From NCBI GenBank assembly GCA_963702025.1, contig OY969699.1, forward strand, positions 1,504,001 through 1,568,000: a stretch of 64,000 nucleotides of DNA, in the 5' to 3' direction. Both the position numbers and the translations under genes were made by a program. This DNA is from an uncultured bacterium (lineage in GTDB: Bacteria; Babelota; Babeliae; Babelales; Vermiphilaceae). Under the pieces are notes generated by a model. That model saw nothing but the letters and a program-made list of their open reading frames with translations. It was not told the DNA's origin and ran no database searches. Position 1 is the stretch's first letter; each line of letters begins with the position of its first letter. Below are positions 18,576 through 59,237 of this stretch, one piece after another.

Positions 18576-18578
18576 TCC

Positions 18579-34443: not shown

Positions 34444-34467
34444 TTAGTCTCTTTTTTCCAAAGAATC

Positions 34468-35133: not shown

Positions 35134-35148
35134 AATAAAAAGGATCTC

Positions 35149-35871: not shown

Positions 35872-35881
35872 TAAGGAATTT

Positions 35882-38388: not shown

Positions 38389-38434
38389 ATGTTCATTTTC
38401 AAACTAGCCCGAAATTAAATTCCTGCTCTTTCTT

Positions 38435-39265
38435 CTATTCTTTTTGCCCAAGGTAAAGGATAAAGGTTGCTGGGCTTGAGACGTCTTTAAATTCACAATA
38501 ACGCATTGTTTTTACGCCAAGACTTTCATAGAGTCGGACATAATCAATGCCAATACAATTTAATGGTGACATACCAGATGGATTTATAACCGTCATATTA
38601 TACCAATCACTACCTTCATTTTTGTTTTCAATATGAAGTATATATTTTTTACTTACACGCACTATTTCTTGGGCTGATTTAACTGCGATGATAAAGGGAA
38701 GATGCATCATAACAGTACAAGTAAAAACTAAATCATAACCATCAGATGGCAAAAATGATAAATCGGGCAGACAACCTTTAATAATTTTAGCTTTTACAGG
38801 GATATCCGGTTTAATAATCCCGGTATTGATCTCAAAATTTTCTTTTATCTGTGCTAAATGTCGGCTATTATGCTCAACGCAGGTGATATCCATACGAGGG
38901 TTACTTGCATATAAATACTTGGATAATTTTCCACAACCCGCACCAAGATCGCATACGCTTGATATCCCTAACGGTAAAATAGTATCTAAAAGAATCCGAT
39001 GAGTAGGATGAATATCCGGAAAGTCATATTCGAAAACATTCCATTCTGCAAGTGAAGAAATGCCTGAATAGTTAACTTCATTTGATAAAGCATTAGCATA
39101 GAGCTTTTCTTCATAGCCAACATTGCAAAGAATGCCAATATCTTGCTTGGCAAGATTGCATTTAAGCAGTTGATTAAAATTATCCGTATGCGCAGACATT
39201 ATTTGCACTATTAAGCAGCTTCCTGAAATAAAATGCATTAAAAAATTTTTTCTTAGAAAGACCAT
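38435..39265 (-). CDS. Class I SAM methyltransferase with signal-like N-terminus
   Basis: VCDLGAGCG, YDLVFTCTVMMH. Confidence 0.8.
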   Translation of the reverse strand: MVFLRKNFLMHFISGSCLIVQIMSAHTDNFNQLLKCNLAKQDIGILCNVGYEEKLYANALSNEVNYSGISSLAEWNVFEYDFPDIHPTHRILLDTILPLGISSVCDLGAGCGKLSKYLYASNPRMDITCVEHNSRHLAQIKENFEINTGIIKPDIPVKAKIIKGCLPDLSFLPSDGYDLVFTCTVMMHLPFIIAVKSAQEIVRVSKKYILHIENKNEGSDWYNMTVINPSGMSPLNCIGIDYVRLYESLGVKTMRYCEFKDVSSPATFILYLGQKE

Positions 39266-39560
39266 ATAATACCCTTATTATTATTTAACATGAAAAAATA
39301 AACAGAAAAGAATGCATTGCATTGTCGGTTCATTAACTCTACTGTTTTGGGATCAACCAAAAATTACTTTGGCTTATTCAAGCAATTTTTTTTTAAAATG
39401 AAAAGATGATTTTAAAGTAATATTCGTTTTCTTCTAGTAGAACCCTCCATTACTCAAAAATTCTATTCACTTGCAAAATTGTAGCAGTTTTAAATAAGCA
39501 TATGCTATAAGAAAAAAGATCTTTCCAGGTAATCAAAACTATCTCAGTAACGGGAGAAAT

Positions 39561-41144
39561 ATGGCTATGAAAATAAAAAAAGCATTTCTATTCTTTTATT
39601 TCATCGGATTTATTACCGGCTCAATTGAATTGTGCTCTGCGCATGACTATATAACGGTGCTTAAAAAAAACGTTTTATATAAATTCGTTCATTTTGACAA
39701 AGCAACGGATAATTTTACCCAAAATATATTCCCTTCATGGGAAAATGAAACTTTTGATGTTTTTGACCAAGTAAAAGATCCTCAGGGCATCGCCATCGAT
39801 ATCGGCGCATGGATCGGAACAACCGCCATTTGGTTGTCCAAAAATTTTTCTCATGTCATAGCAATTGACGCCGATAAAGTTTCTCTTAACTGTCTCCGAT
39901 TAAATTTAGCCGCATCAGAATGTAACAATGTGACTATTTGTGAACGGCCCATTGCGCAAACAAGTAAAAAATTTATTTTTGGGCCCCGCGGCGATGAATT
40001 AAATGAATCAATTTCATACATCAAAGAAGAACTGGGTGCTTCCCCAGCGCACAGTAATCATGATTATGTTGTGCGCGGATTAGCTTTTAAACAGCTGGTA
40101 CATGATTATATATATGCAAATGATAAGTTAAAATCACAAAAAATATCCTTTATTAAATGCGATATTGAGGGTGGCGAAGAAAATATTATTGAAGATTTAT
40201 TGTATTTTGCGTATTACAATAAGGCAAGAGTCTATTTGTCGTTCCATCTGAATTGGTGGAAATCGAAAAAAATAACGGATTTTGAATATCTCTTTAAGTT
40301 CTTTAAAACAAACTGCCCTGTCGCCAATATCTGCGAGTATGTTAATAACAACCCGTTTGCTTCCCTTCTTTTTGAACCACTGGAGAGCAAAGATGTTCTG
40401 ATTAAGAAAAATATGCCGGTTGTGGTCATCGGTTATAATCAATATACCTATATAAAAAATATGGTCGCGCAATTGGAAAAATATACCTCTGATATCATCG
40501 TGGTTGATAATAATAGCACTTACAAGCCCTTAGTGGATTACTATGAAAAGGATTTTAAATACACGCTACTCAAACAAAAACGCAATTATGGCCACACGGT
40601 GTTTAAACAAAGCTTTGTGCAAAATTTAGTGGGTGATATCTATATTCTCACTGATCCGGATCTGGAATTTAACCCTAAACTCCCTACCAATTTTATTCAG
40701 GTTCTGATAGATGTTTCAAATTACTTTGGCTCTCATAAGACCGGCTTTGCCTTATTTATCGACGGCGATGATATACGAACCGACATTAAACTTGAGGGAA
40801 AATCAATTAAAGAATGGGAAAGCTCTAATTGGCAAAAGAAACTAAACTATCCGACCGCCCCTACTTTGGAGTTGTATAGAGCACCTCTTGATACTACGTT
40901 TTGCTTGGTCAATAAAAAACAGGGCGACTGGCACCAAAATAATGTTCGTGTAGCGGGTAATTATACCTGTAAACATCTTCCATGGCACAAAAATTTCAAG
41001 GATGCGCTCCTTCCGGGCGAATATGAAGCATACAAACAAAGCAACGTGTCGACCAACTGGTTTAAAAGAAATAAAATATTCACCAATGAGATGCTTTCCT
41101 TAATTTTTGAAAACATTGCAGCAATTGAGTTGTACCGTCTTTAG
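39561..41144 (+). CDS. FkbM methyltransferase / GT2 glycosyltransferase fusion with signal peptide
   Basis: IDIGAWIG, IKCDIEGGE; then IIVVDNNSTY, ILTDPD, APLDTTF. Confidence 0.8.
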   Translation: MAMKIKKAFLFFYFIGFITGSIELCSAHDYITVLKKNVLYKFVHFDKATDNFTQNIFPSWENETFDVFDQVKDPQGIAIDIGAWIGTTAIWLSKNFSHVIAIDADKVSLNCLRLNLAASECNNVTICERPIAQTSKKFIFGPRGDELNESISYIKEELGASPAHSNHDYVVRGLAFKQLVHDYIYANDKLKSQKISFIKCDIEGGEENIIEDLLYFAYYNKARVYLSFHLNWWKSKKITDFEYLFKFFKTNCPVANICEYVNNNPFASLLFEPLESKDVLIKKNMPVVVIGYNQYTYIKNMVAQLEKYTSDIIVVDNNSTYKPLVDYYEKDFKYTLLKQKRNYGHTVFKQSFVQNLVGDIYILTDPDLEFNPKLPTNFIQVLIDVSNYFGSHKTGFALFIDGDDIRTDIKLEGKSIKEWESSNWQKKLNYPTAPTLELYRAPLDTTFCLVNKKQGDWHQNNVRVAGNYTCKHLPWHKNFKDALLPGEYEAYKQSNVSTNWFKRNKIFTNEMLSLIFENIAAIELYRL

Positions 41145-41259: not shown

Positions 41260-42519
41260 ATGATTTGCCGCAGGTACTGTATAATTTTTTCGATTATTTT
41301 TTCGGGTAGCGCTCACAGCATCACCGGTCCGGTGCTCCTTGTTGTCGGAACCCGGCCCGAGGGAATCAAAATGATACCTGTTTATATCGCACTTAAAGAA
41401 GAGCAGATTCCGGTCCTTTTATGCTCCACCGGACAGCACACCGATCTTTTAGAAGATATTTTTGCCGCTTTTAGCGTTGAACCCGATTTTCGGTTCAATA
41501 TTATGAAACCGGGCCAAGATCTTTTTTATATAACCACGACCGTGCTTGATAAGATGAAAATGATTCTTCAAGAAATCAAGCCTTCATTAGTGATCGTGCA
41601 AGGCGATACCACCAGCGCAATGGCTGCCGCACTTGCTGCCTTTTATCTAAAGATCCCCGTTGGCCATGTTGAGGCAGGATTACGAACGGGCAATATAAAT
41701 GCACCCTACCCGGAAGAAATGAACCGCACTTTTATTAGTCTTATCGCTTCCTATCATTTTGCACCAACCGCCCTTTCAGTAAACAATTTACTCAAAGAGC
41801 ATATTGATCCAACCACTATTTTTTGTGTTGGCAATACCGTGGTTGATGCTCTTGCCATGATGAGCGAAACTATACGCGCCAAAGAAAATCTGATAAGCAA
41901 AGAGTTGGAAGAAACAATTTCTTGGTGCAAAAAAAATAATAAAAAAATCGTATTGCTCACCGCGCATCGCAGAGAATCATTTGATATCGGTCTAGTCTCA
42001 ATTTTCAGGGCCATACAATATTTGTTACAGGAACATTCAGATCTGGCAATTATTTATCCGATGCACCCCAATCCGATTATTAAGCGAAAATTTTTAGAAA
42101 CTGATCTGAACCATTGTGCAAATATCTTTGTTACTGCTCCCTTGAACTATACCGATATGATCTATCTATTAAATAATGTAGATTTTGTTGCCACTGATTC
42201 GGGGGGAATACAAGAAGAAGCGGTAAGCTTGGGCAAACCGGTGCTCGTATTGCGCAATGAAACTGATCGGCCCGAGGGGGTGCTCTATGGAGCGGCACAG
42301 TTGGTCGGCACTGATACGCAAACAATTATCGATTCATGCAATCGACTTCTTACTGATACCCCATCAAAAGGGTATTCAACAATTTACGGTGATGGCACCG
42401 CATCAAAAAAAATTGCAAAAATAGTAACTTCCTTACTAAAAAAAGGGGAAACCGATGTACAAAAAAATGTTATTCATTCTTATAGGTCTGGTGTGTATAA
42501 CCAACTACCGGCCCACTAA
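41260..42519 (+). CDS. wecB: UDP-N-acetylglucosamine 2-epimerase (non-hydrolysing) with signal-like N-terminal extension
   Basis: GTRPEGIKM, TGQH, VQGDTT, HVEAGLR, PEEMNR, HRRE, TDSGGIQEE. Confidence 0.95.
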   Translation: MICRRYCIIFSIIFSGSAHSITGPVLLVVGTRPEGIKMIPVYIALKEEQIPVLLCSTGQHTDLLEDIFAAFSVEPDFRFNIMKPGQDLFYITTTVLDKMKMILQEIKPSLVIVQGDTTSAMAAALAAFYLKIPVGHVEAGLRTGNINAPYPEEMNRTFISLIASYHFAPTALSVNNLLKEHIDPTTIFCVGNTVVDALAMMSETIRAKENLISKELEETISWCKKNNKKIVLLTAHRRESFDIGLVSIFRAIQYLLQEHSDLAIIYPMHPNPIIKRKFLETDLNHCANIFVTAPLNYTDMIYLLNNVDFVATDSGGIQEEAVSLGKPVLVLRNETDRPEGVLYGAAQLVGTDTQTIIDSCNRLLTDTPSKGYSTIYGDGTASKKIAKIVTSLLKKGETDVQKNVIHSYRSGVYNQLPAH

Positions 42520-43363
42520 TTGCAAAGAAATTCAAAAAAAACGGGTATTGATTGGGAGCCCGATACGGCAAAAACCTGCTATTTTAAAAGAGTTTTTGCA
42601 ATCATTGAAAGAATTGAATAATGAAACGTTTGAAGCGGATTACTTATTTGTTGATGATAATAACGATCCGGAATCATCATTAATGCTCAATACTTTTGTC
42701 AATGAAATACCCGAAGATTACGCCATTCTAAAATGTAACAACCCGGAAGAAGATGCCTATGTATGCAATGAACGCACCCATTATTGGCACGAAAAAATTA
42801 TTTGGAAGGTTGCCTATTTTAAAAATTGCATAATCGATTATGCGCTGCAACATTCTTACGACTATCTTTTTTTAATTGATTCAGATATCGTTCTGAATCC
42901 TAAAACCATTGATCATTTAATCGAAACCAATAAAGATATTGTTTCTAATATTTTCTGGACACACTGGCAACCGGAAAATCCCAAATTGCCGCAAGTATGG
43001 CTCATCGATGAATATCAATTTTATATATCAGGCCGCAATGAAAAATTAACCCAAGATGAAATACATGCAAGAACCGTCACATTTTTACAGCAATTGTTAT
43101 ACCCGGGAACCTACGAAGTTGGCGGACTGGGCGCCTGCACCTTGCTTTCACAAAAAGCATTACAAACCGGCGTTAACTTCAAAAAAATAAAAAATCTGAG
43201 TTTTTGGGGAGAAGACAGACATTTTTGTATTCGCGCGGCGGCCCTTGGCATTGAGCTGTTTGTGGATACCTATTATCCGGCCTATCACATTTACCGTGAA
43301 TCGGATCTGAACGGCATTCCTTTGTATAAACAAAATTGCGCAAATAACATTTACCAAATTTAA
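42455..43363 (+). CDS. GT-A (family 2-like) glycosyltransferase with signal peptide
   Basis: FVDD, FLIDSD, GGLGACTL, WGEDRHFC. Confidence 0.8.
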   Translation: MYKKMLFILIGLVCITNYRPTNCKEIQKKRVLIGSPIRQKPAILKEFLQSLKELNNETFEADYLFVDDNNDPESSLMLNTFVNEIPEDYAILKCNNPEEDAYVCNERTHYWHEKIIWKVAYFKNCIIDYALQHSYDYLFLIDSDIVLNPKTIDHLIETNKDIVSNIFWTHWQPENPKLPQVWLIDEYQFYISGRNEKLTQDEIHARTVTFLQQLLYPGTYEVGGLGACTLLSQKALQTGVNFKKIKNLSFWGEDRHFCIRAAALGIELFVDTYYPAYHIYRESDLNGIPLYKQNCANNIYQI

Positions 43364-43369
43364 AGGAAC

Positions 43370-44140
43370 ATGATGAACATACAAAAAATAACTTTTCTGA
43401 TCATATGTTGTTTTTTTGGGGGAACGATCCATCCGAAAAAAAAACAGAAGCTTGTCTTTTCTATGATTATGAAAAATGAAGCAGGTAGAAAATTACGGGA
43501 GTGCTTAGAAGAAATTAATCACTATGCGGATCTTGCGGTAATAATAGACGATGCGAGTACGGATAACAGTATCGCAATAGCACAAGAAATACTCGGTGAT
43601 AAACTGATCCTTATCAGAAATAGAGAGTCAAAATTTTCCAATGAAATTGTTTTACGCAAACAACAATGGGAAGAAACTATAAAAACAAACCCGGATTGGA
43701 TACTTAATATTGATGCCGATCAGATTTTTGAAACAAAAATGAGGGATGAAATTTATCGGCTCATCAATCAAGATGAAATAGATGTGTGGTGTTTCCGCTT
43801 ATACGATTTTTGGGATGAAACTCACTATCGAGATGACCAGATGTGGTGCGCGCATAACACCTACCGCTCTTTCTTGATTAGGTATAAAAAAGATTTTAAT
43901 TATACCTGGAAAGAAACGCCACAGCATTGCGGCCACTTCCCGCAAAGTATTTATTTTGGCGGATTGCGTATTGGCTATTCTCTTATGAGATTAAAGCACT
44001 ATGGGTGGGCAAAAGAAGAGGATCGGATTGCAAAATATTATCGGTATATGAAACTTGATCCGGGCGCCAAATATGGCAACCAAGCACATTACGATTCTAT
44101 TTTGGATACCAATCCTCATTTGCTCGAGTGGATTGAGTAA
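43370..44140 (+). CDS. Family 2 glycosyltransferase with signal peptide
   Basis: MKNE, IIDDASTDNS, NIDAD, KHYGW. Confidence 0.85.
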   Translation: MMNIQKITFLIICCFFGGTIHPKKKQKLVFSMIMKNEAGRKLRECLEEINHYADLAVIIDDASTDNSIAIAQEILGDKLILIRNRESKFSNEIVLRKQQWEETIKTNPDWILNIDADQIFETKMRDEIYRLINQDEIDVWCFRLYDFWDETHYRDDQMWCAHNTYRSFLIRYKKDFNYTWKETPQHCGHFPQSIYFGGLRIGYSLMRLKHYGWAKEEDRIAKYYRYMKLDPGAKYGNQAHYDSILDTNPHLLEWIE

Positions 44141-44176
44141 TATTTATTAAAATATATTTTTATTGTCTGGAATGCT

Positions 44177-45418
44177 ATGAAAAAAATACTTAAAATTGTA
44201 CTACTCATTTTACCTCTCTCCATGATCGCACGCGATCCACATTCAAAATATGACGCAACCCTAATCGGCATGATCTCATATCAAAGCGCCTGTAAACTGC
44301 CAGGATTATGGATAGACAACTTATATAAAGATTGCTCAATTAATTTCATACCAACCTGTTTCATGAATCTCGATTCGGCATCTGAAGTAACCAAATTAAT
44401 TGCACAAAACCCCGATAAAACTCCCGGCACCGTTAGTATATTGCTCGATAACGTAATTTGGACCCCTCAATATTGTTCATATACCTATGTACCAGATAGC
44501 CCTATTAAAATTGTTCTATCAATGCTGGAAGCATCAAAAATGATTCCGCAATGTGTACAGATTTTAAATACCAAATTCGATGCGGTCATAGTGCCTGATG
44601 AATACTGGATTCCAGTCTACCGAGAATCCGGCGTAACAATTCCTATTTTTGTGCTGCCCTGCGGGCTTGATCTTGATGGCCTGTTATCAAAACCATTACC
44701 CCGTAGACCGCATACCACCTTTACCTTTGGATTTTCCGGCGCATTCTGGGAACGAAAAAATCATGTAAAAGTGCTTGAAGCATTTGCGCAAGAATTCGGC
44801 AATGATCCCCATGTTCAATTAAGACTTCATGGGCGCGGAGGCTACCAATCTATTCTTAATGATTTATCTAGCCTTATAAAAAAATACCGTCTGGATAATG
44901 TAGAGATATTTACGGATCAATTTAGTCAACGGCAATTTGAAGATTTTATGACATCTCTTGATGTGTATGTGTTAGTTTCAACTGCCGAAGGTTATTCGAT
45001 CAGCCCCCGTGAAGCAATGGCGCTTGGCATTCCGTGTATATTATCAAACAACACCGCGCATATTACCCTATGCAACAGCGGATTTGTAAGGGCAGTAAAA
45101 GCGGAGATACCGCGCGATCCGGACCAATATGAAACATTACGCGGCATTGTTGATCGCGGTATTCAATTTGATTGCACCGTTGAAGATGTACGCGCAGCGA
45201 TGAGAGACGTCTATAACAATTATCAGTCATATTTAGAAAAAGCGGGCCCCGCTCGCCAGTGGGTAAGAAGATATTCATTTTCCACGCTTAAAGAAAAGCA
45301 TCTTAACTTTATTAAGCCTCCCCGTGTAATTCTGGGGAATGAAAACAAAGTTGAAAATGATTATTTAATGACCAATGATGCGAAACTTTATAATAAATAT
45401 CTACAGATTATACAGTAG
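44177..45418 (+). CDS. Family 4 (GT-B) glycosyltransferase with signal peptide
   Basis: ERKN, STAEGYSISPREAMALGIP. Confidence 0.85.
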   Translation: MKKILKIVLLILPLSMIARDPHSKYDATLIGMISYQSACKLPGLWIDNLYKDCSINFIPTCFMNLDSASEVTKLIAQNPDKTPGTVSILLDNVIWTPQYCSYTYVPDSPIKIVLSMLEASKMIPQCVQILNTKFDAVIVPDEYWIPVYRESGVTIPIFVLPCGLDLDGLLSKPLPRRPHTTFTFGFSGAFWERKNHVKVLEAFAQEFGNDPHVQLRLHGRGGYQSILNDLSSLIKKYRLDNVEIFTDQFSQRQFEDFMTSLDVYVLVSTAEGYSISPREAMALGIPCILSNNTAHITLCNSGFVRAVKAEIPRDPDQYETLRGIVDRGIQFDCTVEDVRAAMRDVYNNYQSYLEKAGPARQWVRRYSFSTLKEKHLNFIKPPRVILGNENKVENDYLMTNDAKLYNKYLQIIQ

Positions 45419-45430
45419 TACGGGATCCCC

Positions 45431-46528
45431 ATGAAACAATCACTCATTTTAGCAATTTTGGTAAGCCTCTTGCCTAATTCACTTTTATCCAAGAGCGCAT
45501 TAATCTTTGGCATTGCAGGGCAAGATGGCATATATCTAACTGAATTACTCCTGAGTAAAGGATATACAGTTCATGGTGTGGCAAGGAGATGTACAAATAA
45601 AAATCTAAAGCTACTCGATGTTTTTGCACAAAATAGAAATCTTCAGACAAAACTTATTTTACACTTTGGGGATGTGACTGACCCTCTTAATATACGTGAA
45701 CTTATCTCTCAAATAAATCCAGATGAAATATACAATCTAGCTGCACAAAGCAATGTAAAACTATCCTTTGATACCGCATTTCATACCGCTCAAACAAATG
45801 CGCTCGGAACTCTTAATATTTTAGAAGCCATACGGTCAATAAATACCAATATTCATTTCTACCAAGCATCGAGCGGTGAGATGTTTGGTAAAGCTGAAGG
45901 GTTACCTCAAAATGAAACTACTCCCTTCCATCCACAATCTCCCTATGCAATCGCCAAACTTTATTCTTATTGGATAACGGTAAACTATCGGAACGCCTAT
46001 GGCATTTTTGCCTGCAATGGCATTCTTTTTAACCATGAATCCCATTTAAGAGATGAAACATTTGTCACCAAAAAAATAACCCGTTCCGTTGCCCGCATTT
46101 ATTACGGACTGCAAGAAACATTGTATTTGGGAAATCTTAATGCGCGGCGCGATTGGGGCTTTGCCAAGGATTATGTTGAAACAATGTGGCTCATGCTTCA
46201 ACAAGAAAAACCTGCTGATTATGTTGTTGCCACCGGCAAGAACCATTCGGTTCGCGAGTTTGTTGAACATGCATTTAATGAAGTAGACGTTGAAATTGAA
46301 TGGCAAGGGGAGGGAACAGAAGAAAAAGGCATAGATAAAAAAACAGGCAAAATTATTGTTGCCGTTGATCCCGCCTATTTTAGACCAACAGAAGTAGAAT
46401 ATTCCATCGGTGACCCGTCCAAGGCAATTGCAGAGTTACGATGGCAACCAAAAACTGATTTCGCATCGTTGGTTACCCTTATGGTGCAGCATGATTTGGC
46501 CGAAACTAAAGAAGAAATGAAAAAATAG
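45431..46528 (+). CDS. gmd: GDP-mannose 4,6-dehydratase, divergent copy, with signal-like extension
   Basis: [44 protein letters not shown]. Confidence 0.9.
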   Translation: MKQSLILAILVSLLPNSLLSKSALIFGIAGQDGIYLTELLLSKGYTVHGVARRCTNKNLKLLDVFAQNRNLQTKLILHFGDVTDPLNIRELISQINPDEIYNLAAQSNVKLSFDTAFHTAQTNALGTLNILEAIRSINTNIHFYQASSGEMFGKAEGLPQNETTPFHPQSPYAIAKLYSYWITVNYRNAYGIFACNGILFNHESHLRDETFVTKKITRSVARIYYGLQETLYLGNLNARRDWGFAKDYVETMWLMLQQEKPADYVVATGKNHSVREFVEHAFNEVDVEIEWQGEGTEEKGIDKKTGKIIVAVDPAYFRPTEVEYSIGDPSKAIAELRWQPKTDFASLVTLMVQHDLAETKEEMKK

Positions 46529-46543
46529 TAAAAAAGGATTTTT

Positions 46544-47542
46544 ATGAAAAAAATACTATTACTAACATTTTGTATCACTCTCAATGCAATCGCATTGAAA
46601 ATTCCTACCAGCAGCAATTCACCTCATTTACGTTTCATAAATTGCAAGTCTTGGGATTTATGCACGCTCGATGAATCATTTATCGCTATGCTCGCTCGTG
46701 CCTTTAAGCCGGTAAATTTTGTAGAAACAGGCACATTTAAAGGTGACACCACTGATCGAGCATGCCGCTATTTTCCATTTAAATATACCATTGAGTTAAG
46801 CAAAGAATTGTATGACGGAGTCACCCAAAGATTCATGCATGACAAAACTGTATTTCCGTATCATGGTGATTCTGTTGAAATTTTACCAATGATAATTCAA
46901 TCATTAAAAGGAAAAACGCTCTTTTTTCTCGATGCGCATTTTAGTGGCAACGGAACGGCTAAGGGTTCAACTAATACTCCAATTTTGTCCGAACTTGAGA
47001 TTATTAAGAAGGCAGGTGTTACCGATGGCATAATTGTGGTTGATGATACCCGTATGTTTTACGAACACAATGCCTCTGTACAGGGAAGCATAATGGAAGG
47101 ATATCCATCGTTAGCAGCGATTATAAATAAAATTTTGGAAATAAACCCTGATTACTCCTTTGCAATCATCGCTGACGATTTAGTGGCATACCCGGCATCT
47201 GAAAATATAACGGTCTCCGCAGTAACCCGAGCAGTAACTATTAGTAGAGTTTATGATGGCAACAATTTCACGGTTGATGAAGTTTTAGCTGCAGAACAAA
47301 TTATTGCAAAAGCAACCGGAGATGAACGTGCTACCATTCAAATGCTGGCAGAACATTGTACTGAACCGTGGAGTAAAAAAGCAGGACTTTCCCGCCATTA
47401 TCCTCTATGGTACGGACTCATTTTATTTAATGAGAATAACCATGGTAGAGCAGAGTTATTTTTGCAAGAAGCAAAACAACGAGGGCTAAAACATCCATAT
47501 ATTGATTCTTATTTCAAACCACAATCATACAGTTTTCTTTAA
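46544..47542 (+). CDS. Methyltransferase-like protein with signal peptide
   Basis: VETGTFKG, FLDAHFSG, VDD; paralogue of the C-terminal half of 36646. Confidence 0.65.
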   Translation: MKKILLLTFCITLNAIALKIPTSSNSPHLRFINCKSWDLCTLDESFIAMLARAFKPVNFVETGTFKGDTTDRACRYFPFKYTIELSKELYDGVTQRFMHDKTVFPYHGDSVEILPMIIQSLKGKTLFFLDAHFSGNGTAKGSTNTPILSELEIIKKAGVTDGIIVVDDTRMFYEHNASVQGSIMEGYPSLAAIINKILEINPDYSFAIIADDLVAYPASENITVSAVTRAVTISRVYDGNNFTVDEVLAAEQIIAKATGDERATIQMLAEHCTEPWSKKAGLSRHYPLWYGLILFNENNHGRAELFLQEAKQRGLKHPYIDSYFKPQSYSFL

Positions 47543-47552
47543 TAAAATACTT

Positions 47553-48335
47553 TTACTTATATAGTTGCTCGTAATTAGCTTTATCCCAATACCAAGCCGG
47601 CGACTCTTCATAACGGGGTATATGATAAAATCCTAATTCATTATCTTTCCACGATGAATGGTGATAATCAATTTTATAAGGATTTGATAATCGATTTACA
47701 ATATGTTTAGTAAAATATTCTTCACAAAAATGGTAGTCCCCTTTAACGAACTTCTCGATCTCGGGATGATTTTTAAATAATTCGCGAGCGCAAGACACCT
47801 TAATAAAAAAGCAATCGGTATGGCAATAATCTTTAAGATGAGTTCGATCTTCTCTATCTTCAAATCCGATCCAATTCTTAATAACAATATCATGACCATC
47901 GATAATTTTGCCAACCGCTTTTTTAATCAGATTCATATCATTAATAAATACTGATTCATGTTTAAAAAGTATAATATCCTCATCGGCGCATGCCGGATCA
48001 TTTACTGCAATTTTTATTGAATTGATAATGCAATTTAAACAATCCAATTGTTTATCTCTGGATTGAAAAACCATACATGCCGGTTTTTGACCATTAAATT
48101 CTACATCCACATTTTGAGCGTCATTTGTTGCCACAAATATCTTTTTAAAGGGAATTAATGCCATATCCTTCTGGGTTGTTTCGATAAGTAATTGCTTACG
48201 GCCATATGAGGGCCCGGTACACAGAATAATTTTATGTTTTAATACATAATCAATGGCATTTTGACTTGGAATGACTGCCCCATAAGAAAGATTGCACATT
48301 AAAATGAGAGCAGTAATTATCAAGTGCTTTTTCAT
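47553..48335 (-). CDS. Secreted hypothetical protein
   Basis: 260 aa; signal peptide MKKHLIITALILMCNLSYG; no recognised motif. Confidence 0.6.
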   Translation of the reverse strand: MKKHLIITALILMCNLSYGAVIPSQNAIDYVLKHKIILCTGPSYGRKQLLIETTQKDMALIPFKKIFVATNDAQNVDVEFNGQKPACMVFQSRDKQLDCLNCIINSIKIAVNDPACADEDIILFKHESVFINDMNLIKKAVGKIIDGHDIVIKNWIGFEDREDRTHLKDYCHTDCFFIKVSCARELFKNHPEIEKFVKGDYHFCEEYFTKHIVNRLSNPYKIDYHHSSWKDNELGFYHIPRYEESPAWYWDKANYEQLYK

Positions 48336-48355
48336 TGACCAACCCTTATTTGTTA

Positions 48356-49054
48356 TTAATTGTTCGATCCTTTTGCTTTAAAGACCACCCAAATACGCGG
48401 TTGATCTTTATCGAGCAATACAGAAATACCTTTTTTACCAAAAAATTCATTAACGGCACGCGGCACTCCCGGATGACGGGTGGCATAATCATCACCGGCC
48501 ATAACACCACCCTCTTTTATTTTGGGCCACCATGCTTCCAAATCTTTAAGAACTTCTTCATAATTATGGTTTGCATCTAAAAATACGATATCAATTTCCC
48601 CGTCTTCAAAACGCCGCGCAGCATTAAGCGAAAAATCACGAATTAATTCGAAGCGATCCCCAAATACGCTCAATTTATTTTTTACCTTATGGAAAAATAT
48701 TTCGTAATAATTATCTGATGTCACAAGATTGGTAGAATCCCCATAATTTAAATAAGGATCAATACCATATAATTTCTTAATATTTGTTGCTTCCAATATT
48801 CTTTTGCAATGTGATCCAAAGGAAATACCTATTTCTATGGCCGTATGAAAACCATACTGATTTATCAATCGCGGCACTATATTATAATAGACCCCCCAAT
48901 CCGCATCACATCCCGCTTCCATTTTATCTAGATAGTCAAGAGCTTGATTAATTTCTATTAACGGTATTCTTGTTTGTACATGCAATTCATGCCTGTCTAA
49001 ATAGGCACAAAGTTTTATGCTTACCAATAACAATATTATTATTAATTTTTTCAT
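48356..49054 (-). CDS. Class I SAM methyltransferase (Methyltransf_24-like) with signal peptide
   Basis: IEIG, GIDPY, VFLDANHNY, GGVMAGDDY. Confidence 0.85.
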   Translation of the reverse strand: MKKLIIILLLVSIKLCAYLDRHELHVQTRIPLIEINQALDYLDKMEAGCDADWGVYYNIVPRLINQYGFHTAIEIGISFGSHCKRILEATNIKKLYGIDPYLNYGDSTNLVTSDNYYEIFFHKVKNKLSVFGDRFELIRDFSLNAARRFEDGEIDIVFLDANHNYEEVLKDLEAWWPKIKEGGVMAGDDYATRHPGVPRAVNEFFGKKGISVLLDKDQPRIWVVFKAKGSNN

Positions 49055-49898
49055 ATGAACCCTTTTTATTTATTAACGATTATTTTCTTTAACCAACCTT
49101 ATTTGACGTGTCTATAAATCCGGATTTGGCATATGTTTCTTGATTATTAAATATGAATTTTGGATAGGTTTCATCTATTTTGACTAAAGGAAAGGATGCG
49201 ATTCTCTTTTCCATATTTTTTCGATCCTTATTGGTCGGCGTGTCATATTCAGCATGCGCCCATGATGTTAGTTTGGTTACTACTCGATCATAACCACCCA
49301 TATAGGTAAGATGCCAACCCGCGTTATTAATGCCAGGAACCATTCTGCGTTGTGCTAAACTTCTACAATAATCCGGTGCAAATTTTTTTAAATCTTTATA
49401 AAAGACGCCTATCGATCCGGGCCACGGGGAATCTTTTGCGTCAAAACGATTAAAATAATATCTATACATTGCTTGGTTACAAAGGACCACTCTATGCCTA
49501 ACGGAGTCAGGCATTTCTTCAAGTGTTTTTTTAATTTCCGGAATAACTGATGGTCTTATAATCTCATCCGCATCTGAAATTAAAATTAAATCATCCGGCT
49601 CACAATCCTTGAGGCCCCTCATAATCTGATCACGTTGATAACGATCCCTCACCCAAGCATCATTTGTTGTGATCCGCTCATCAACAATAACATGAACTAT
49701 TTTATCTAAAAATTTTTCAAAATGTTGCTTATTCGCTTCAAAATAGAGCGGCTTAGGGTTACCCCTAAAGGTTTCACGTGATTCTACTAAAACAAATTTA
49801 TCCACATGATCATACAGTTCATGAAATCGAACCTCTAGAAGCTCGAGCTCATTAAAGAATAAAAAACAATCATAAATTTTTGCATAACCCATATTACT

Positions 49899-51226
49899 CA
49901 ATACTCCGGACAGTTTTAACATCTAATCATCCCGAATTTAATTGCACTTTTTAACCCTGGATCGAATTTTATTAAATTCGGGTCCAATCCTAACTTTGAA
50001 ATAATCTGTTTTGTGAGCATTTCATTGTAGTTTTTGCGCTTATGACTTGCCATGGAAAAAGGAACTTTTTCCGGCAAGCTTTTCTTGGCTTCAACCTCCT
50101 GAACCTTGGCTATTGTAAGAGCGGAAAAAGAGGCATTAAAGTGATGATTGAGCTTTTCTTTGCTGCGCGCTTGAGATTCGGTAAGTCCTGTAAATTGTTT
50201 CGCATCACGAAAAACAAACTCAATTTGAAAACGTGCCTTGTAAAAGTCATAAATATCACGCGCGCTTAACGAAAAATCTGTTGAAAAAAGAAGACAAATA
50301 GATTCTTTGTTTTTAACACATACAACTCGAACCGTTCGCTTAAGACTTATGCTGTAATAATCAGCAAAATACAATGAAATGTGTTCATCAATTTTATCTG
50401 AAAAATTAAAATTGCTGAGATCTTTTACATCAACTTTCTTTCCGTACTTTCTTGGCCTTCCGCGACCTCTATTTTGCTCAAAAACTAAATATCGTAAATT
50501 AGCATCAGATCGCAATCGACTTATTACATGATAATTATCAGATCTCATCGCCGATACAAATTGTTCTTTTGCAAAATAAGCATCACAAACTAAAAACTTT
50601 ATATCAAATTTTTCTTTGATTTTGGGAAGCTGCCCTTGAAGGCTATGAATATAAAAATTGATTCGAGTTGCATCAGATTTGCCAATTATTTGAACAATTT
50701 CATCTTTTGGTGGTGTTTGCTGAACAGAAAGCGGATATCCAATATTTTCGTCAACATCGATTAATGCTAGCCCGCTTGCCTCTAATCCTTTTTCAGATTT
50801 GCTTTGTGAACCATTCCAGAATGATTCTCTACCGTAAGTTTTTTTGCCTGATTTTTCTATGAAAAATGGATCAAATGCCAAGATCAGTCGCTTTTCTTGA
50901 ATGATTATTCTTTTCACCGCAATGAGGTTGAATTGAAGATAATCAAAGCATTTAGCAAAGTTTCGAGAAAAAGTTTTTTCGCTCATATCAGCATATCTAG
51001 CCATGTTGGCAAAATTTACGCGACCAGCCATCGAAAGTATCGTGCTCATCAGGTCATTTACAAACTTTTTTTGAGGTTTCGAAATTTTTGTCATTTTTTC
51101 CAAAATTTCCTGTATAATTTTCATTGCCGCATTTCCCTTTTTTGAGGAAGTTTGATTGACTCCCACTAATTATGGATATGCGGCCTAAACTTTCAAGTCA
51201 CTTTCAAAAAACTGTCCGAACTATTG
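49899..51226 (-). mobile_element. IS4-like DDE insertion sequence, 1328 bp
   Basis: TIRs CAATACTCCGGACAGTTTT / CAATAGTTCGGACAGTTTT (17/19); 8-bp TSD ATATTACT at 49891-49898 and 51227-51234. Confidence 0.9.
49916..51166 (-). CDS. DDE transposase (IS4/IS701-like)
   Basis: LAFD, VCDAYF, ISRLRSDA, YKARFQIEFVFRDAKQ (YREK-type motif); start may be the Met at 51124. Confidence 0.9.
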   Translation of the reverse strand: MGVNQTSSKKGNAAMKIIQEILEKMTKISKPQKKFVNDLMSTILSMAGRVNFANMARYADMSEKTFSRNFAKCFDYLQFNLIAVKRIIIQEKRLILAFDPFFIEKSGKKTYGRESFWNGSQSKSEKGLEASGLALIDVDENIGYPLSVQQTPPKDEIVQIIGKSDATRINFYIHSLQGQLPKIKEKFDIKFLVCDAYFAKEQFVSAMRSDNYHVISRLRSDANLRYLVFEQNRGRGRPRKYGKKVDVKDLSNFNFSDKIDEHISLYFADYYSISLKRTVRVVCVKNKESICLLFSTDFSLSARDIYDFYKARFQIEFVFRDAKQFTGLTESQARSKEKLNHHFNASFSALTIAKVQEVEAKKSLPEKVPFSMASHKRKNYNEMLTKQIISKLGLDPNLIKFDPGLKSAIKFGMIRC

Positions 51227-51408
51227 ATATTACTCAGAAACAATAATATAAATCCACTTACGATTTTGTTCATTATATCTCCTTTTTAAAAATTGCAGAT
51301 CATGACAAAGCTACTAAACAAATTATCTTCATGCAATCGAGGTACATAGTTTGTGAAATTCTTTATAATAATTTGCATTGTTTATAAGCAGAATCGTATT
51401 GTCGTAGC

Positions 51409-51547
51409 CCGTTCGTGCTGAGCTTGTCGAAGCATGATGAATTGCAGGAGATAATACAGAAAAACCAGTTGGCATACAAAAAATAAGCATACCATTAGCG
51501 CAAAAAAGTCATTTAAAAAAATGCTTCGACAAGCTCAGCACGAACGG
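51409..51547. repeat. REPIN-like element: 27-bp perfect inverted repeats around an AT-rich spacer
   Basis: CCGTTCGTGCTGAGCTTGTCGAAGCAT (51409-51435) and its exact reverse complement (51521-51547). Confidence 0.85.
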
Positions 51548-51650
51548 AGGGGACGCTGGATAACTTAGAATCAAACATATAACTACTTTGTCAACGCATT
51601 CAAAAATAGCTATGCTATGAAAAAAATATTTACACTAAAAAAGGTGCAGA

Positions 51651-52766
51651 ATGAACACTTGCTCAAGAATTATTCTATCTCTTTTACTGAGCATAATTCC
51701 CACATCCTCTTTCTCTCATATCAAAAAAATTGCACTTATTTTTGGCATCACGGGCCAAGATGGGGCCTATCTTGCCGAATTTCTTCTGGACAAAGGGTAT
51801 GAAGTGCATGGTGTTAAACGGCGATCATCAAGTTTTAATACCGCCCGAATAGACCATCTTTATCAAGATCCGCATCATAATAACAAAAAATTTAGTCTCC
51901 ATTATGGGGATCTATCAGATAGCGCCAACATTGCAAAACTGATTCAAGAAATTGAACCGGATGAAGTCTATAATTTAGGCGCGCAAAGCCATGTACGCGT
52001 TTCTTTTGATATCCCTGAGTATACCGCAGATATTGATGCGCTGGGCACCTTACGCATTCTAGAAGCGATTCATGTATCAAAAAAGAAGATCAAATTTTAT
52101 CAGGCATCAAGCAGCGAAATGTTTGGCAAAGTAGCAGAAATTCCTCAAACGGAAAAAACTCCCTTTTATCCCCGGTCACCTTATGGCTGCGCCAAAGTTT
52201 TTGCGTACTGGATCACGGTCAACTATCGTGAAGCGTATAGCATTTTTGCCTGCAATGGCATTTTGTTTAACCACGAATCACCCATCCGAGGAGAAACCTT
52301 TGTAACGCGAAAAATTACCCGCGCCGTTTCCAATATTTATCGCGGCTTACAAGAGACTCTTTATTTGGGCAATCTTGATGCACAACGGGATTGGGGGTAC
52401 GCAAAAGATTATGTGGAGGCTATGTGGCTCATGCTCCAACAAGATGAACCGAGCGATTATGTGATTGCCACCGGAGAAACTCATTCGGTGCGAGAATTTT
52501 GCGAATGCGCCTTTAAAGAAGTTGGCATAGAAATAGAATGGCACGGCACCGGATCGGATGAAAAAGGCATCGACAAAAAAACCGGCAAAGTGGTCGTCGC
52601 AATCGATCCAATCTATTTCCGTCCGTCGGAAGTTGATCTCTTAATCGGTGATGCAACATACGCGAAAGAAAAGCTCAACTGGCACCCCCGAACTGATTTT
52701 AAAGGACTGGTGAAGATTATGCTTGATCACGATTTGGGGATGACGAAAAAAATGAAGGATATCTAA
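51651..52766 (+). CDS. gmd: GDP-mannose 4,6-dehydratase with signal-like extension
   Basis: [58 protein letters not shown]. Confidence 0.95.
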
Positions 52767-53563
52767 TATATCAAATTTTCTTCGGCATACCGATCCTGCA
52801 AATACGTCTTCCAGATTGCCGGATGCAACTCTTTGATCCACTGATCAATCTGTTTTCTATATTCAGCATCAATTAATTTTGAATGGAACAACAGATCATC
52901 ACCGTGTGATTGCGATTCTCGATACAAATCAATCGCTTTTTTCTTGTGAAAATCATAGTGATTCATAAAATCATCAATATAATCAAGCGGTTCGCCGAGG
53001 AACATAATCGCTCTCACCAGAGTTTGAATCGGTCTTGAAAGAAGGTCCTCATAATAAATTAGAAGCCGATTTTCCGGCGCCCATTCATCAAACAAGGCAA
53101 TATTATCAAAATATATACGAGGATCGTCATTACCCTTTGCCTGCTGCCCCAACAACATCGGTAGGGTAATTTCTCTACCGCCGTGCCTGCTTAATGCTTC
53201 CTTGGGATTACGAACAATCAAAATGAGTTTATCATTAACAAAATCACCACCACTTTTACGAATTTCTTTACGCACGTGGACTTTTTCGATGGGTGGCCTG
53301 GTACAATCGATCTCAAATCCGGCCAACCAACCGATCGGATGGTCACGTTTATTATTCCTATTAAAACGATGAAATGTTGGCCGACCCGTATTATATTCCA
53401 GACAATAGCGCATCCAAGTATTTCCCGAACGCGGATAAGATGCCAAAAAAGTTCTTTGCCCATCATAGGCACATAAAATATCAAGTAGCTGGTCAGCGTT
53501 GCTGTGGACTGTTGCACTTCCACTACAAATAAAACACAACATAAGATAGAAAAATTTCCCCAT
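52763..53563 (-). CDS. PAPS-dependent sulfotransferase with signal peptide
   Basis: 5'-PSB motif SYPRSGNTW, 3'-PB motif [12 protein letters not shown]. Confidence 0.85.
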
Positions 53564-53661: not shown

Positions 53662-54585
53662 ATGAATCATTTTGTATTAATTTCCATAGTCTCAGTGGCG
53701 TTTACTGCTGCCGCATACGAAAAAGATTTTACCACACTACGACCAGTAACCATCGCCATATTAGCAAAAGATAAGGCACATTGTTTACCGCTTTATCTTT
53801 CCTGCATTGAAAAACAGACATGGCCCAAATCTATGACCTATTTGTATATCCGAACCAATGACAATAATGACAATAGCGCACAAATATTGCATGATTGGGT
53901 TAATAAAGTTAAGGATCAGTATTTAGGCATCTTTTTTGATGATTCCGATGCGCCGATTAGTGTAAAACAATACGTTCAACATGAATGGAACTGTACTCGG
54001 TTCAAAGTATTAGGTGCAATACGTCAAGCTTCTTTGGATTGGGCTTACGAACATGGGTCACATTATTTTGTGATTGACTGTGATAACTTTATATTTCCCC
54101 ATACGGTTGAAACAATGGTATACACGAATCTTCCTATAGTGGCGCCTTTGCTTCATAGCAATTGCGCATATTCAAACTTTCATGCGGATATCGACTCTAA
54201 CGGTTACCTAAAAGATTCGCCATTTTATCTACCATTAGTAAATAGAGAAATAAAAGGGCATGTACAAGTTCCGGTAGCTCATTGCACCTATTTTATTCGA
54301 CATGAAGTATTACCGGAGATGAGTTACGATGATGAAAGTTATCGCTACGAATATGTTATTTTTAGTGACAATGCACGGAAAAAAGAGATTCCACAATATC
54401 TTGATACCACCGATGTGTTTGGCTATGTTTCATTTGCCGAAAACTCAAATGATCTGGTCAAAGAGCCATGGTTTTTGCCATTTACTATGAAATTACATAG
54501 TTTTAACCCTTCGAGACCCGTCTTCGCCAAGGCTACGCCGGGCACCGCGCACGCTCCTCAGCCTGCCCGCCATAGCTCTGAATGA
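53662..54585 (+). CDS. GT-A glycosyltransferase resembling the COLGALT/PLOD (procollagen glycosyltransferase) N-terminal domain, with signal peptide
   Basis: IAILAKDKAHCLPLYL, IRTNDNNDNS..IL.DW, FVIDCD, VAPLL, YSNF, VPVAHCTY; last 25 aa or so derive from a repeat. Confidence 0.7.
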   Translation: MNHFVLISIVSVAFTAAAYEKDFTTLRPVTIAILAKDKAHCLPLYLSCIEKQTWPKSMTYLYIRTNDNNDNSAQILHDWVNKVKDQYLGIFFDDSDAPISVKQYVQHEWNCTRFKVLGAIRQASLDWAYEHGSHYFVIDCDNFIFPHTVETMVYTNLPIVAPLLHSNCAYSNFHADIDSNGYLKDSPFYLPLVNREIKGHVQVPVAHCTYFIRHEVLPEMSYDDESYRYEYVIFSDNARKKEIPQYLDTTDVFGYVSFAENSNDLVKEPWFLPFTMKLHSFNPSRPVFAKATPGTAHAPQPARHSSE

Positions 54586-56267: not shown

Positions 56268-57509
56268 TCAGGCAAAAGCATTTTGTTGGGCAAGCTTACG
56301 ATTTAAATAAAAAGAGAGATTCGTAAAAAGATGCGGATAATTATCATGCGTCTTCAATGCAGCACGAACCTCTTGCTCGCCCATGTCGAATTCACCGACG
56401 TACCAGGCGCATTGACCAAGAATATCATGACGAACATAATCATATGCCTCTTTTTCTACAAAAAGTGTGTCATTGGCCGGATAAGGAACCTGACAAGCTC
56501 GTTGCGCAAACAAAAAGGCACATGCATGATTACCTTCATGTAAATAATGTTGCGCTACACGAATAAGTGGCTCAACCCGGATCGGTCTCATCGTAAATGC
56601 TTGCAAATAATGATCAAGCGCTTCGGCCCAACAAGAACTGCCATCAGGATTTTTCATACGCTCAGTTACCGTTGCCAAACGATAGCGTGCCATAAAATCT
56701 TCCTCACACCAGCCAATTAAATGGGTACGTAATTCATAGTAGTAATAGGCATTATCAAGATCACCTAGACAATCAAATGTTTGCGCCAAATAGAAGCAGG
56801 TACGAGAATCTTGGGGATTAGCTAAGAATGCTTTAAGAAGCAATTCTTTATCACGCATCCATCGCCGCTGCGTTTTTTCGGCGCCAGCCCGTTCAACTTT
56901 TAGCTCAAAATAAATGCTATTGGGTGTCTTAAACTGTGTGCCTATCATAATCGTTTCGTGCACAACGCCGCCAAATCTCAAACTGGAACCGCCGCGCAAA
57001 AGACGTTGTGTACCAAAATCCAGGTCAGGTGAAACGATTCGCACCAAATATGAAGTATGCTCAGGATGTTCAAGCTCCCGTTCGCAAAAAGCAAGCAACT
57101 CTTCAACCCCATGCAAATACCATTCGGCATCTGGCATTAACATATATCCCGCGTGAGGGAATTTTTCTCCCACCAAATCGAGCGCCCGATTACGGGAAGT
57201 GGCAAAATCAACAAACGGTTCTTGAATTATGAAATAATTGGTCAAATGGTAATCCATAAAGAGCTCTTCGGCCTTGATCATCGTGGGCGATCGTGGATCA
57301 AGCCCCGTATCATAAACCACGTAGGCAATCTTTTCTCCCCGGGGATCTGCCTTGCAATACATTTCCAGAGTTTGTCTAATAACCGTTTCTTCATCTTTTA
57401 CCATTATAACAACAACCAAAAGGGGATCGGGCTTGGCGGTTTGTGCATAGGATGACTCAATAAAACATGCTAGAAATAAGATAGCGCACAGCGCAGAAAG
57501 AAACTTCAT
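56268..57509 (-). CDS. Family 2 glycosyltransferase with TPR repeats and signal peptide
   Basis: MVKDE, YDTG, FVDFATSRN, MPDAE, GVVHE, then helical TPR-like region (FYLAQT). Confidence 0.85.
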   Translation of the reverse strand: MKFLSALCAILFLACFIESSYAQTAKPDPLLVVVIMVKDEETVIRQTLEMYCKADPRGEKIAYVVYDTGLDPRSPTMIKAEELFMDYHLTNYFIIQEPFVDFATSRNRALDLVGEKFPHAGYMLMPDAEWYLHGVEELLAFCERELEHPEHTSYLVRIVSPDLDFGTQRLLRGGSSLRFGGVVHETIMIGTQFKTPNSIYFELKVERAGAEKTQRRWMRDKELLLKAFLANPQDSRTCFYLAQTFDCLGDLDNAYYYYELRTHLIGWCEEDFMARYRLATVTERMKNPDGSSCWAEALDHYLQAFTMRPIRVEPLIRVAQHYLHEGNHACAFLFAQRACQVPYPANDTLFVEKEAYDYVRHDILGQCAWYVGEFDMGEQEVRAALKTHDNYPHLFTNLSFYLNRKLAQQNAFA

Positions 57510-59219: not shown

Positions 59220-59237
59220 TTCTCTCTCCTCATTAAA

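Follow-up and report, generated by a model that had tools for sequence, protein, structure and literature searches.

Three nucleotide-sugar enzymes encoded in a 64-kb stretch of the genome of an uncultured bacterium (contig OY969699.1, positions 1,504,001 to 1,568,000), namely the UDP-GlcNAc 2-epimerase WecB and two copies of the GDP-mannose 4,6-dehydratase Gmd, carry real N-terminal leaders of the secretion type, with export itself being a prediction. To our knowledge bacterial nucleotide-sugar synthesis is treated as strictly cytoplasmic. The three enzymes belong to a larger glycan kit predicted to be exported, donor synthesis included, and export with use of host donors, in whichever compartment this takes place, is very probable. 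Throughout, the window denotes the whole 64-kb stretch; coordinates are those of the window, and ones prefixed with G000 are those of the source genome. The enzymes are encoded as follows:

41260..42519, + strand: WecB, non-hydrolysing UDP-GlcNAc 2-epimerase (TIGR00236); predicted Sec leader at about 41260-41319, with predicted cleavage after AHS
45431..46528, + strand: divergent Gmd-like paralogue (TIGR01472); predicted Sec leader at about 45431-45490
51651..52766, + strand: canonical GDP-mannose 4,6-dehydratase, Gmd (TIGR01472); predicted Sec leader at about 51651-51716

Leaders on WecB and the two Gmd copies

WecB scored 411 bits against the TIGR00236 equivalog model (cut-off 210) and just 72 against the NeuC model (cut-off 236), and the Gmd genes at 51651 and 45431 scored 607 and 505 bits, respectively, against the TIGR01472 equivalog model (cut-off 415). 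An alignment of WecB, the single wecB match in the source genome, to the Escherichia coli structure 1f6d revealed conservation of the motifs GTRPE, GDT, HVEAGLR, PEE, HRRES and DSGG, and both Gmd copies retain GxxGxxG and the catalytic Ser/Thr, Glu, Tyr and Lys, whose roles in this family are known. The sequence-only reading held that canonical Gmd and WecB begin within a few residues of the first strand, and the homologue alignments indeed start where the leaders end: 1f6d (also 1vgv) aligns from its residues 1-3 to residue 25 of WecB, and the Gmd structures 1db3 and 7kf3 align from residues 1-3 to residues 20 (45431) and 24-26 (51651).

Leaders were called with a home-made open reading frame (ORF) caller and a home-made rule that looks for a basic n-region, a hydrophobic h-region and small residues at -3 and -1. 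The rule gives false positives where the first beta-strand is hydrophobic (GlmU, PyrG, MnmA, SecA and DnaN), and enzyme leaders were judged by eye relative to the domain start. A cleavage-site matrix was trained on 206 secreted proteins of the source genome itself. By the rule, the matrix and chance controls all three enzymes have leaders of the Sec and signal peptidase I type, 20-25 residues in length, which bears out the signal-peptide-like extensions described from the sequence alone. The matrix scores were 9.4 for WecB, 6.6 for Gmd 45431 and 9.4 for Gmd 51651, as compared to 3.8-9.3 for 11 envelope or periplasmic-type proteins and to 3.9 for the 99th percentile of 288 leaderless proteins, a control that is partly circular in that these proteins were pre-selected for low hydrophobicity. 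The cleavage site in both Gmd copies is uncertain by 2-3 residues.

An in-frame stop codon lies 1 (WecB), 4 and 4 (Gmd copies) codons upstream of the ATG, and thus the leaders are not run-on upstream DNA. We consider it very unlikely that the enzymes are not exported at all, with the leaders being mis-called starts, tolerated extensions or cytoplasm-facing tethers and GDP-mannose being imported into the bacterial cytoplasm. Such an account would draw on a GTG at the first strand of WecB (codon 25, its one alternative start), on an ancestral Met just after the leader in the Fcl of many relatives and in some Gmd, on the EamA genes and three TLC nucleotide-carrier genes of the source genome, which could import donors, and on the presence of a clear WecB leader in just 2 of 30 loci. 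Both of the loci with a clear WecB leader are of this genus, their leaders differ in sequence, and the gain of the WecB leader looks recent. Against it, no ATG, GTG or TTG was found between Met1 and the first strand of Gmd 51651, Gmd 45431 has two TTG codons (10 and 14), and no Shine-Dalgarno site precedes these or the WecB GTG; AAAGGG precedes Met1 of WecB, and AAAGG precedes Met1 of the gene labelled 'Gmd2'. A clear Shine-Dalgarno site before the inner Met was likewise found in none of the 7 Fcl genes inspected. Such a leader occurred in 0 of 750 out-of-frame readings of the DNA upstream of leaderless genes, and 0.3-0.5% of 20,000 base shuffles per leader yielded one. Moreover, the h-regions are short and of the cleavable type, the leaders are kept in 62 of the best 120 homologues and in two phyla, and the transferases that consume the donors are leader-bearing too.

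The three leaders had been taken to be mutually unrelated in sequence. This does not hold for the two Gmd copies, in which 7 of 15 residues of the h- and c-regions are identical in an ungapped comparison, and these two leaders are therefore not independent evidence. The related claim of selection for export is well supported by other evidence, namely the varied leaders on homologues of Gmd 51651 and their tracking of the loss of manC (see below).

The diverged motifs that had been noted in Gmd 45431 (GIAGQDG, SSGE and ESHLRDE) are present, but they do not point to simple decay. This copy belongs to a conserved subfamily with 8 members, and all 7 that are complete bear leaders. The catalytic Ser147, Glu150, Tyr172 and Lys176 are kept in it and throughout the subfamily, and the idea of a decaying copy was rejected. 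The members share AQSN in place of AQSH, loss of the RRSSSFN loop and an altered RGETF, with SSGE confined to two of them, and four come from contigs equal in length to that of a canonical leader-bearing Gmd match, with which they probably share the contig. An altered activity or regulation fits these sequence features better. It is possible, by analogy to the GMD of the chlorovirus PBCV-1, which also produces GDP-D-rhamnose (PMC9614988; this and the other papers are cited for the portions of their text available to us), that Gmd 45431 might act as a reductase in place of Fcl. Bearing on this idea, three genomes (G184, G185 and G007) lack Fcl and have just one Gmd-family match, and another (G175) has a long-branch second Gmd copy plus Fcl.

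Missing donor genes and leaders across Babelota

One contig of 1.60 Mb makes up the source genome (95% complete), and the phylum to which it belongs numbers 261 genomes, every one of them placed in the same order. A close Gmd homologue is labelled Babeliales, the source genome contains about 100 ankyrin-cluster genes as well as the three TLC nucleotide-carrier genes, and the organism is taken as a member of Babelota (Dependentiae), a lineage of bacteria with a strictly intracellular life in protists (PMC12172432). The leader rule, which is crude and includes false positives, places leaders on 863 of 1576 ORFs of this genome, and signal peptides are reported for 44% of the coding sequences of Chromulinavorax destructans (PMC6561590).

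A genome-wide search for leaderless gmd, wecB and fcl recovered no leaderless gmd or wecB in the source genome, and fcl, the absence of which from the window had been noted earlier, is missing from the entire genome. No manC was found in it either, with the PF00483 matches being solely GalU and GlmU and a ManC query giving no candidate. The same genome showed no DegT-type aminotransferase, its lone weak match being SufS-like by N-terminal sequence, and no WecC, its single dehydrogenase of that family scoring as Ugd. This sole Ugd-family protein (G000:165200-166585) is itself leader-bearing, and GlmU, GlmS and GalU have no leader. The genome hence contains no cytoplasmic manC-gmd-fcl module, that is, a leaderless Gmd along with manC and fcl, and the bacterium has no gene for making GDP-mannose, the substrate of Gmd, or for finishing the Gmd product. 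As neither a leaderless copy nor manC exists, the claim that donors are converted outside the bacterial cytoplasm follows, and with neither fcl nor a DegT-type aminotransferase a lone exported Gmd would need a host partner. In one relative (G187, 97% complete) fucosyltransferase-fold genes are present without a true Gmd, Fcl or ManC match.

Leaders that vary in sequence occur on 62 of the best 120 homologues of Gmd 51651, including the first 51, where for four of them the start had been mis-called and the leader was recognized by eye; the remaining 58 have none. We took Gmd loci from 48 other Babelota genomes (49 with the source genome), choosing top matches to span families and calling leaders by hand on the best-scoring Gmd copies per genome; the table uses by-eye labels for L018 (leaderless) and L024_2 (leader-bearing). 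A leader-bearing Gmd is present in 31 of the 49 genomes, 6 of which have both kinds, and 18 have leaderless Gmd only. All 16 genomes without manC have only leader-bearing Gmd among the copies taken, and manC is present in every one of the 24 genomes in which a leaderless Gmd was found. Five of the manC-less genomes were added as a test once the pattern was seen, and all five have a leader-bearing Gmd. In several loci with a leaderless Gmd the gene stands beside membrane-embedded transferases.

The other enzymes of the pathway also carry leaders, as seen in 20 of 37 Fcl (the second batch of 11 being drawn from leader-Gmd genomes), 9 clear cases and 1 probable case of 28 ManC, and 23 of the 30 best Ugd matches. 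In three genomes (G242, G244 and G227) the entire set of ManC, Gmd and Fcl is leader-bearing. We also noted fusions of the form leader-Gmd-Fcl (L011, G199), leader-GT2-Gmd (L020, G178) and leader-DUF1796-Fcl, in a list drawn from L011 (G199), L020 (G178), L029 (G142), L042 and other loci of family f1, in which leaderless WecB-WecC fusions are common.

A Gmd pattern scan across GTDB gave at least 120 matches, 80 loci of which were listed and 79 parsed. Among the matches listed, 12 of the 79 parsed loci have leaders, namely 7 from Chlamydiota (all 7 of that phylum), 1 from Babelota, 1 unlabelled and 3 titled 'uncultured Pseudomonadota', and in one Chlamydiota locus a leader-bearing Fcl adjoins the leader-bearing Gmd. 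The other 67, about 43 of them from Pelagibacterales, are leaderless, and the ALIFG motif was accordingly rejected as a marker of an exported clade, as these 67 genomes have it. The three 'uncultured Pseudomonadota' (L091, L115 and L134) may represent further intracellular lineages, or else Babelota under a wrong label. A locus titled Chlamydia trachomatis (L103) has a leader-bearing Gmd and the gene order of an environmental Chlamydiia locus (L094), and its title is probably a mislabel. In a quick tree of 93 Gmd rows, with an unresolved backbone and several free-living rows on long branches, chlamydial and Babelota leader-Gmds seem to interleave and some leaders appear to have arisen inside leaderless groups (L290, L011 and L019). 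Leader-bearing Gmd is thus phylum-wide in Babelota and common to environmental Chlamydiae. On this wider scale we regard as rather probable a complete out-of-cell glycosylation factory in Babelota and the environmental Chlamydiae that share its genes, in which ManC, Gmd, Fcl, Ugd and WecB, along with transfer, methylation and sulfation, would be exported via Sec and fuelled by host GTP, NAD(P)H, S-adenosylmethionine (SAM) and 3'-phosphoadenosine-5'-phosphosulfate (PAPS), with the coat being glycosylated in the manner of giant viruses.

Predicted export route and proposed site of action

TatC was matched in 11 of 14 control genomes, whereas none was found in the source genome, and the three leaders do not qualify as those of twin-arginine (Tat) substrates, with an RR pair being present solely in the WecB leader. 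Without TatC, export would proceed via Sec with the proteins unfolded, and Gmd would need NADP+ from outside. The source genome has a signal peptidase I gene, two secretins and six pilin-type genes, and type II is the sole secretion system described in Babela (PMC4378268). It also encodes leader-bearing proteins of the UCH, RING, SET, DOT1 and HDAC families, which implies a Sec-to-host route, as was likewise concluded for Babela (PMC4378268).

Predicted export extends beyond the sugar pathway to other parts of metabolism. Other leader-bearing enzymes that are usually cytosolic include a second Ndk adjoining a leaderless one, a HIT protein, a nitroreductase, an AhpC peroxiredoxin and two P-loop kinases, and further such proteins are GNATs, a PPDK-domain protein and an acyl-CoA thioesterase; their loci include G000:127203 (+), 490855 (+), 548737 (+), 565062 (-), 1018258 (-) and 1107720 (-).

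The reading that we tentatively place first is a Sec-exported glycan assembly line in, or open to, the host cytosol; drawing GDP-mannose and cofactors from the host, this line would add glycans to surface proteins that the bacterium itself secretes. The enzymes would cross the inner membrane unfolded through Sec, be cut by signal peptidase I and leave the cell via a type II-like secretin system or vesicles. Gmd would acquire NADP+ outside and convert host GDP-mannose to the 4-keto-6-deoxy intermediate, which would be finished by the host GDP-fucose synthase in the case of the source genome, or by exported Fcl in many relatives. Gmd would thereby raise the GDP-fucose pool for four exported fucosyltransferase-fold proteins, completion by the host synthase being the simplest account of a lone Gmd that feeds them, and WecB and Ugd would provide UDP-ManNAc and UDP-glucuronate. 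The acceptors would include Ser/Thr-rich collagen-like fibres encoded nearby. In line with this, delta-60 genes, which encode the fibres, are present in 16 of the 31 leader-Gmd genomes but in 0 of the 18 leaderless-only ones.

By family, Fcl uses NADPH, ManC uses GTP and mannose 1-phosphate, and Ugd uses NAD+. The presence of leaders on enzymes that need GDP-mannose, GTP, mannose 1-phosphate, NADPH, NAD+, SAM and PAPS implies a work site that draws on a non-bacterial cytosolic pool. It is because of this need, the lone Gmd with four fucosyltransferase-fold proteins, the gene complement of G187 and the Sec-to-host proteins that the host cytosol or an open surface comes first. The earlier view that action in host cytosol fits best thus retains its place as the likeliest site, but it is not established, given that the glycan enzymes lack the Met-Glu start of the ankyrin proteins. 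A dependence on host GDP-mannose is known for the chlorovirus GMD (PMC9614988).

The Met-Glu-type start was recognized in 245 of 629 leader-bearing proteins of the source genome, in which a small residue, Met and a polar residue come right after the h-region (14 expected); the pair is mostly Met-Glu, and no Shine-Dalgarno site was found before the inner Met of the Met-Glu-type proteins. It is enriched in ankyrin proteins, occurs in WD40, LRR, UCH and SET proteins too, and is absent from envelope proteins. Met followed by Glu, Asp, Gln or Asn is the consensus for acetylation by the eukaryotic NatB.

Several observations weigh against a site in the host cytosol or against the breadth of the proposal. 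None of 40 glycan enzymes, of 9 fibre proteins or of 16 envelope proteins has a Met-[EDQN] mature start, as compared to 64 of 100 ankyrin proteins, a point weakened by the absence of this start from the RING, DOT1 and HDAC proteins too. The commonest predicted first residue of mature leader-Gmds is Lys (16 of 57), and an N-terminal Lys is destabilising in the eukaryotic N-degron pathway. Of the 31 leader-Gmd genomes, 15 are without a delta-60 match; fibre genes lie near gmd solely here and in the same-genus G185, and are far apart from it in G245, G241 and G231. The Fisher p of 8e-7 for the manC table overstates its significance, since the genomes are related; the table covers the best-scoring Gmd copies. 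Both export and location are predicted from sequence only. Finally, Babela grows in a vacuole (PMC4378268), and chlamydial Sec and type II substrates have been located both in the cytosol and in the inclusion lumen (PMC6717882).

The lack of the Met-Glu-type start is a feature that the glycan enzymes share with envelope proteins, and it would suit a Golgi-like periplasm fed by the host, which we place a close second, somewhat less likely than the host cytosol. Here the enzymes, transferases and acceptors would stay periplasmic, host GDP-mannose, NAD(P)(H), SAM and PAPS would diffuse through an outer membrane free of lipid A, EamA carriers may add UDP-sugars from the cytoplasmic GlmU and GalU, and the finished glycoproteins would then be secreted. 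No LpxC was found in the source genome, GlmU, GlmS and GalU are leaderless, two of the four EamA genes close the cluster, and the second Ndk and some glycosyltransferases of relatives have longer, anchor-like leaders, all of which favour such a scheme, as does the fact that Sec would bring enzyme and acceptor to one place. However, in the six genomes that have a lone Gmd without Fcl (the source genome, G184, G185, G035, G007 and G127) the intermediate would have to exit and re-enter via the outer membrane. Furthermore, Fcl and Ugd need turnover of NADPH or NAD+, for which we know of no periplasmic recycling, the bacterium would have to lie free in the cytosol, and the leaders of glycan enzymes are close to those of ankyrin proteins in anchor-likeness (medians 1.66 and 1.57).

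A vacuole lumen would equally account for the missing Met-Glu start. In this improbable alternative the vacuole that houses the bacterium receives the secreted enzymes, and nucleotide sugars arrive there via recruited host transporters, as with the chlamydial glycogen enzymes. All 7 Chlamydiota Gmd matches listed are leader-bearing, one beside a leader-bearing Fcl, Babela develops in one vacuole (PMC4378268), and chlamydial GlgA uses host UDP-glucose within the inclusion (PMC6717882). Conversely, Chromulinavorax replicates in the host cytoplasm (PMC6561590). The lumen would also have to supply NADPH, NAD+, GTP and mannose 1-phosphate besides GDP-mannose. We know of no sealed lumen that holds these.

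In its workings the proposed host-cytosol assembly line is like two known systems and a member of neither. Giant-virus kits (GMD A118R and GMER of PBCV-1, the collagen glycosyltransferase L230 of mimivirus and the glycogene cluster of CroV; PMC9614988) comprise parasite-encoded Gmd, Fcl, Ugd, glycosyltransferases and methyltransferases that use host GDP-mannose and decorate the virus's own surface or collagen-like proteins, as proposed here, and the GT11-like and GT2-TPR proteins of the window resemble clusters rich in viral members. The viral enzymes differ in being synthesized within the host cytoplasm and do not have to be exported, whereas here an unfolded passage over the inner membrane is needed. 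In Chlamydia trachomatis GlgA, GlgB and GlgX act in the inclusion on host UDP-glucose delivered by SLC35D2 (PMC6717882), and are similarly carbohydrate enzymes of usually cytoplasmic type that act extracellularly on a nucleotide sugar from the host; they differ in having type III signals, in making a storage polymer and in that the donor-making GlgC is not secreted, while here the donor-making enzymes have Sec-type leaders. The secretome of Babelota (Babela massiliensis, PMC4378268; Chromulinavorax destructans, PMC6561590) shares the lineage, export route and high share of leaders, but the effectors described in the portions available are ankyrin, ubiquitin-system, protease and nuclease proteins, with no nucleotide-sugar or glycan enzymes.

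The manC-gmd-fcl and wecB-wecC modules of the E. coli colanic acid, O-antigen and enterobacterial common antigen type are cytoplasmic. They use the same enzyme families, and leaderless versions occur in 24 of the 49 Babelota genomes, whereas here every copy has a leader and manC, fcl and WecC are lacking. We found no report of Sec-exported nucleotide-sugar enzymes in a literature search that mostly did not extend to subscription journals. Term searches of the main texts of PMC6561590, PMC4378268, PMC4776705 and PMC12172432, in the portions available, likewise gave no such report, and signal-peptide predictions in their supplements may include these proteins; the available part of PMC11495043 added nothing on the subject. 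If true, the proposal would constitute a novel strategy by which reduced intracellular bacteria outsource the building of surface glycans without importers, cytoplasm-only metabolic models of Babelota would misplace the nucleotide-sugar pathways, and Babelota, environmental Chlamydiae and giant viruses would be tied to a common pool of glycosylation genes in protist hosts. The claim is directly testable, as there are Babelota in culture.

The surrounding glycan block

Between window positions 19585 and 59238 the leader rule is passed by 28 of 41 ORFs. Four glycan genes fail it: one has its leader from an inner Met, one has it in another frame upstream, in one it is split by an insertion sequence (IS), and one lies directly behind a second IS. 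The main neighbours are:

1155..19352, - strand: array of secreted delta-60-repeat proteins (TIGR02608), two with Gly-X-Thr collagen-like repeats, plus a BclA_C protein (PF18573); candidate glycan acceptors
25230..26009, - strand: GT6 glycosyltransferase (PF03414, E 7e-52) with a weak leader (matrix 2.3)
27110..28099, - strand: leader-bearing fucosyltransferase-fold protein, GT11-like (predicted structure and Foldseek)
32560..41144, mixed strands: block of leader-bearing methyltransferases (TylF, FkbM and Methyltransf_24, families that use SAM), with a GT2 fusion and unknown proteins
42455..45418, + strand: three leader-bearing glycosyltransferases (Anp1-like, GT2 and GT4), all on the same strand, between wecB and gmd 45431
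49089..49922, - strand: GT17 gene (PF04724), its leader split off by an adjoining IS4-type element, with a leader remnant beyond the IS; six paralogues elsewhere in the genome bear leaders
52763..53563, - strand: leader-bearing sulfotransferase (PF00685; PAPS user by family)
53662..54585, + strand: leader-bearing GT-A protein, homologous to the N-terminal domain of COLGALT1, procollagen galactosyltransferase (phmmer versus PDB, E 2e-32)
56268..57509, - strand: leader-bearing GT2-TPR protein of SunS-like architecture (Atlas 0.99, PF00535 and TPR clusters)
57609..60290, mixed strands: two EamA/DMT transporters (PF00892) either side of a methyltransferase at the block end; 2 of 4 in the genome

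The protein at 27110 was not named by sequence searches of PDB and Pfam, and its single-sequence fold had a predicted local distance difference test score (pLDDT) of 34.5. It falls in the Atlas GT11 cluster (0.96), and its model (pLDDT 81.7) gave Foldseek matches that, as shown, are all fucosyltransferases (FUT8, AtFUT1, POFUT1 and NodZ; best E 7e-6). It is likely to be a user of GDP-fucose. It has three paralogues in the genome, and all four fucosyltransferase-fold proteins are leader-bearing.

The collagen-like fibres of the delta-60 array are likely glycan acceptors. The protein at 14229-18575 (-) is secreted, spans 1448 residues with delta-60 repeats and has a repeat region of 807 residues that is 50% Ser plus Thr, with about 270 Gly-X-Y triplets that are mostly GST and GQT. 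These repeats have no Lys and little Pro, thereby differing from animal collagen and resembling fibres of the BclA type.

Given that family membership marks the GT2-TPR and COLGALT-like proteins as protein-directed, and that about half of the proteome is leader-bearing with many host-type domains, the enzymes might instead be anti-host effectors that drain GDP-mannose or rewire host nucleotide-sugar pools, with the transferases modifying host proteins rather than the bacterial surface. We hold this to be highly improbable: the genes sit in a biosynthetic cluster with sugar methyltransferases and sulfotransferases, entire ManC-Gmd-Fcl pathways are leader-bearing in the three genomes named above, the WecB donor is typical of bacterial glycans, and the ankyrin-type start is missing. 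The EamA/DMT pair might serve as carriers of SAM or nucleotide sugars.

Among the minor features, no phage match was found for the GT-A gene at 53662, and no RNA holder is listed for the locus. The IS4-type element (window 49916-51166, -) whose insertion split the leader of the 49089 GT17 gene has a 100% identical copy at G000:861145-862473. At about 28240-29251 (+) a NanM-like methyltransferase has its leader in another frame just upstream, representing a frameshift that marks either a pseudogene or an assembly error. A transposase-like ORF (30038-30850, -) lies between two glycosyltransferase-like genes, with the GT2 gene at 30955 behind it being leaderless, and the block is broken up at 23009-25112 by two ORFs, one that we take to be AAA ATPase-like and a small one of presumed PemK/MazF type. 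From G000:498013 onward lies a second glycan island, in which six leader-bearing GT17 genes stand in tandem next to a fucosyltransferase-fold paralogue (496861).

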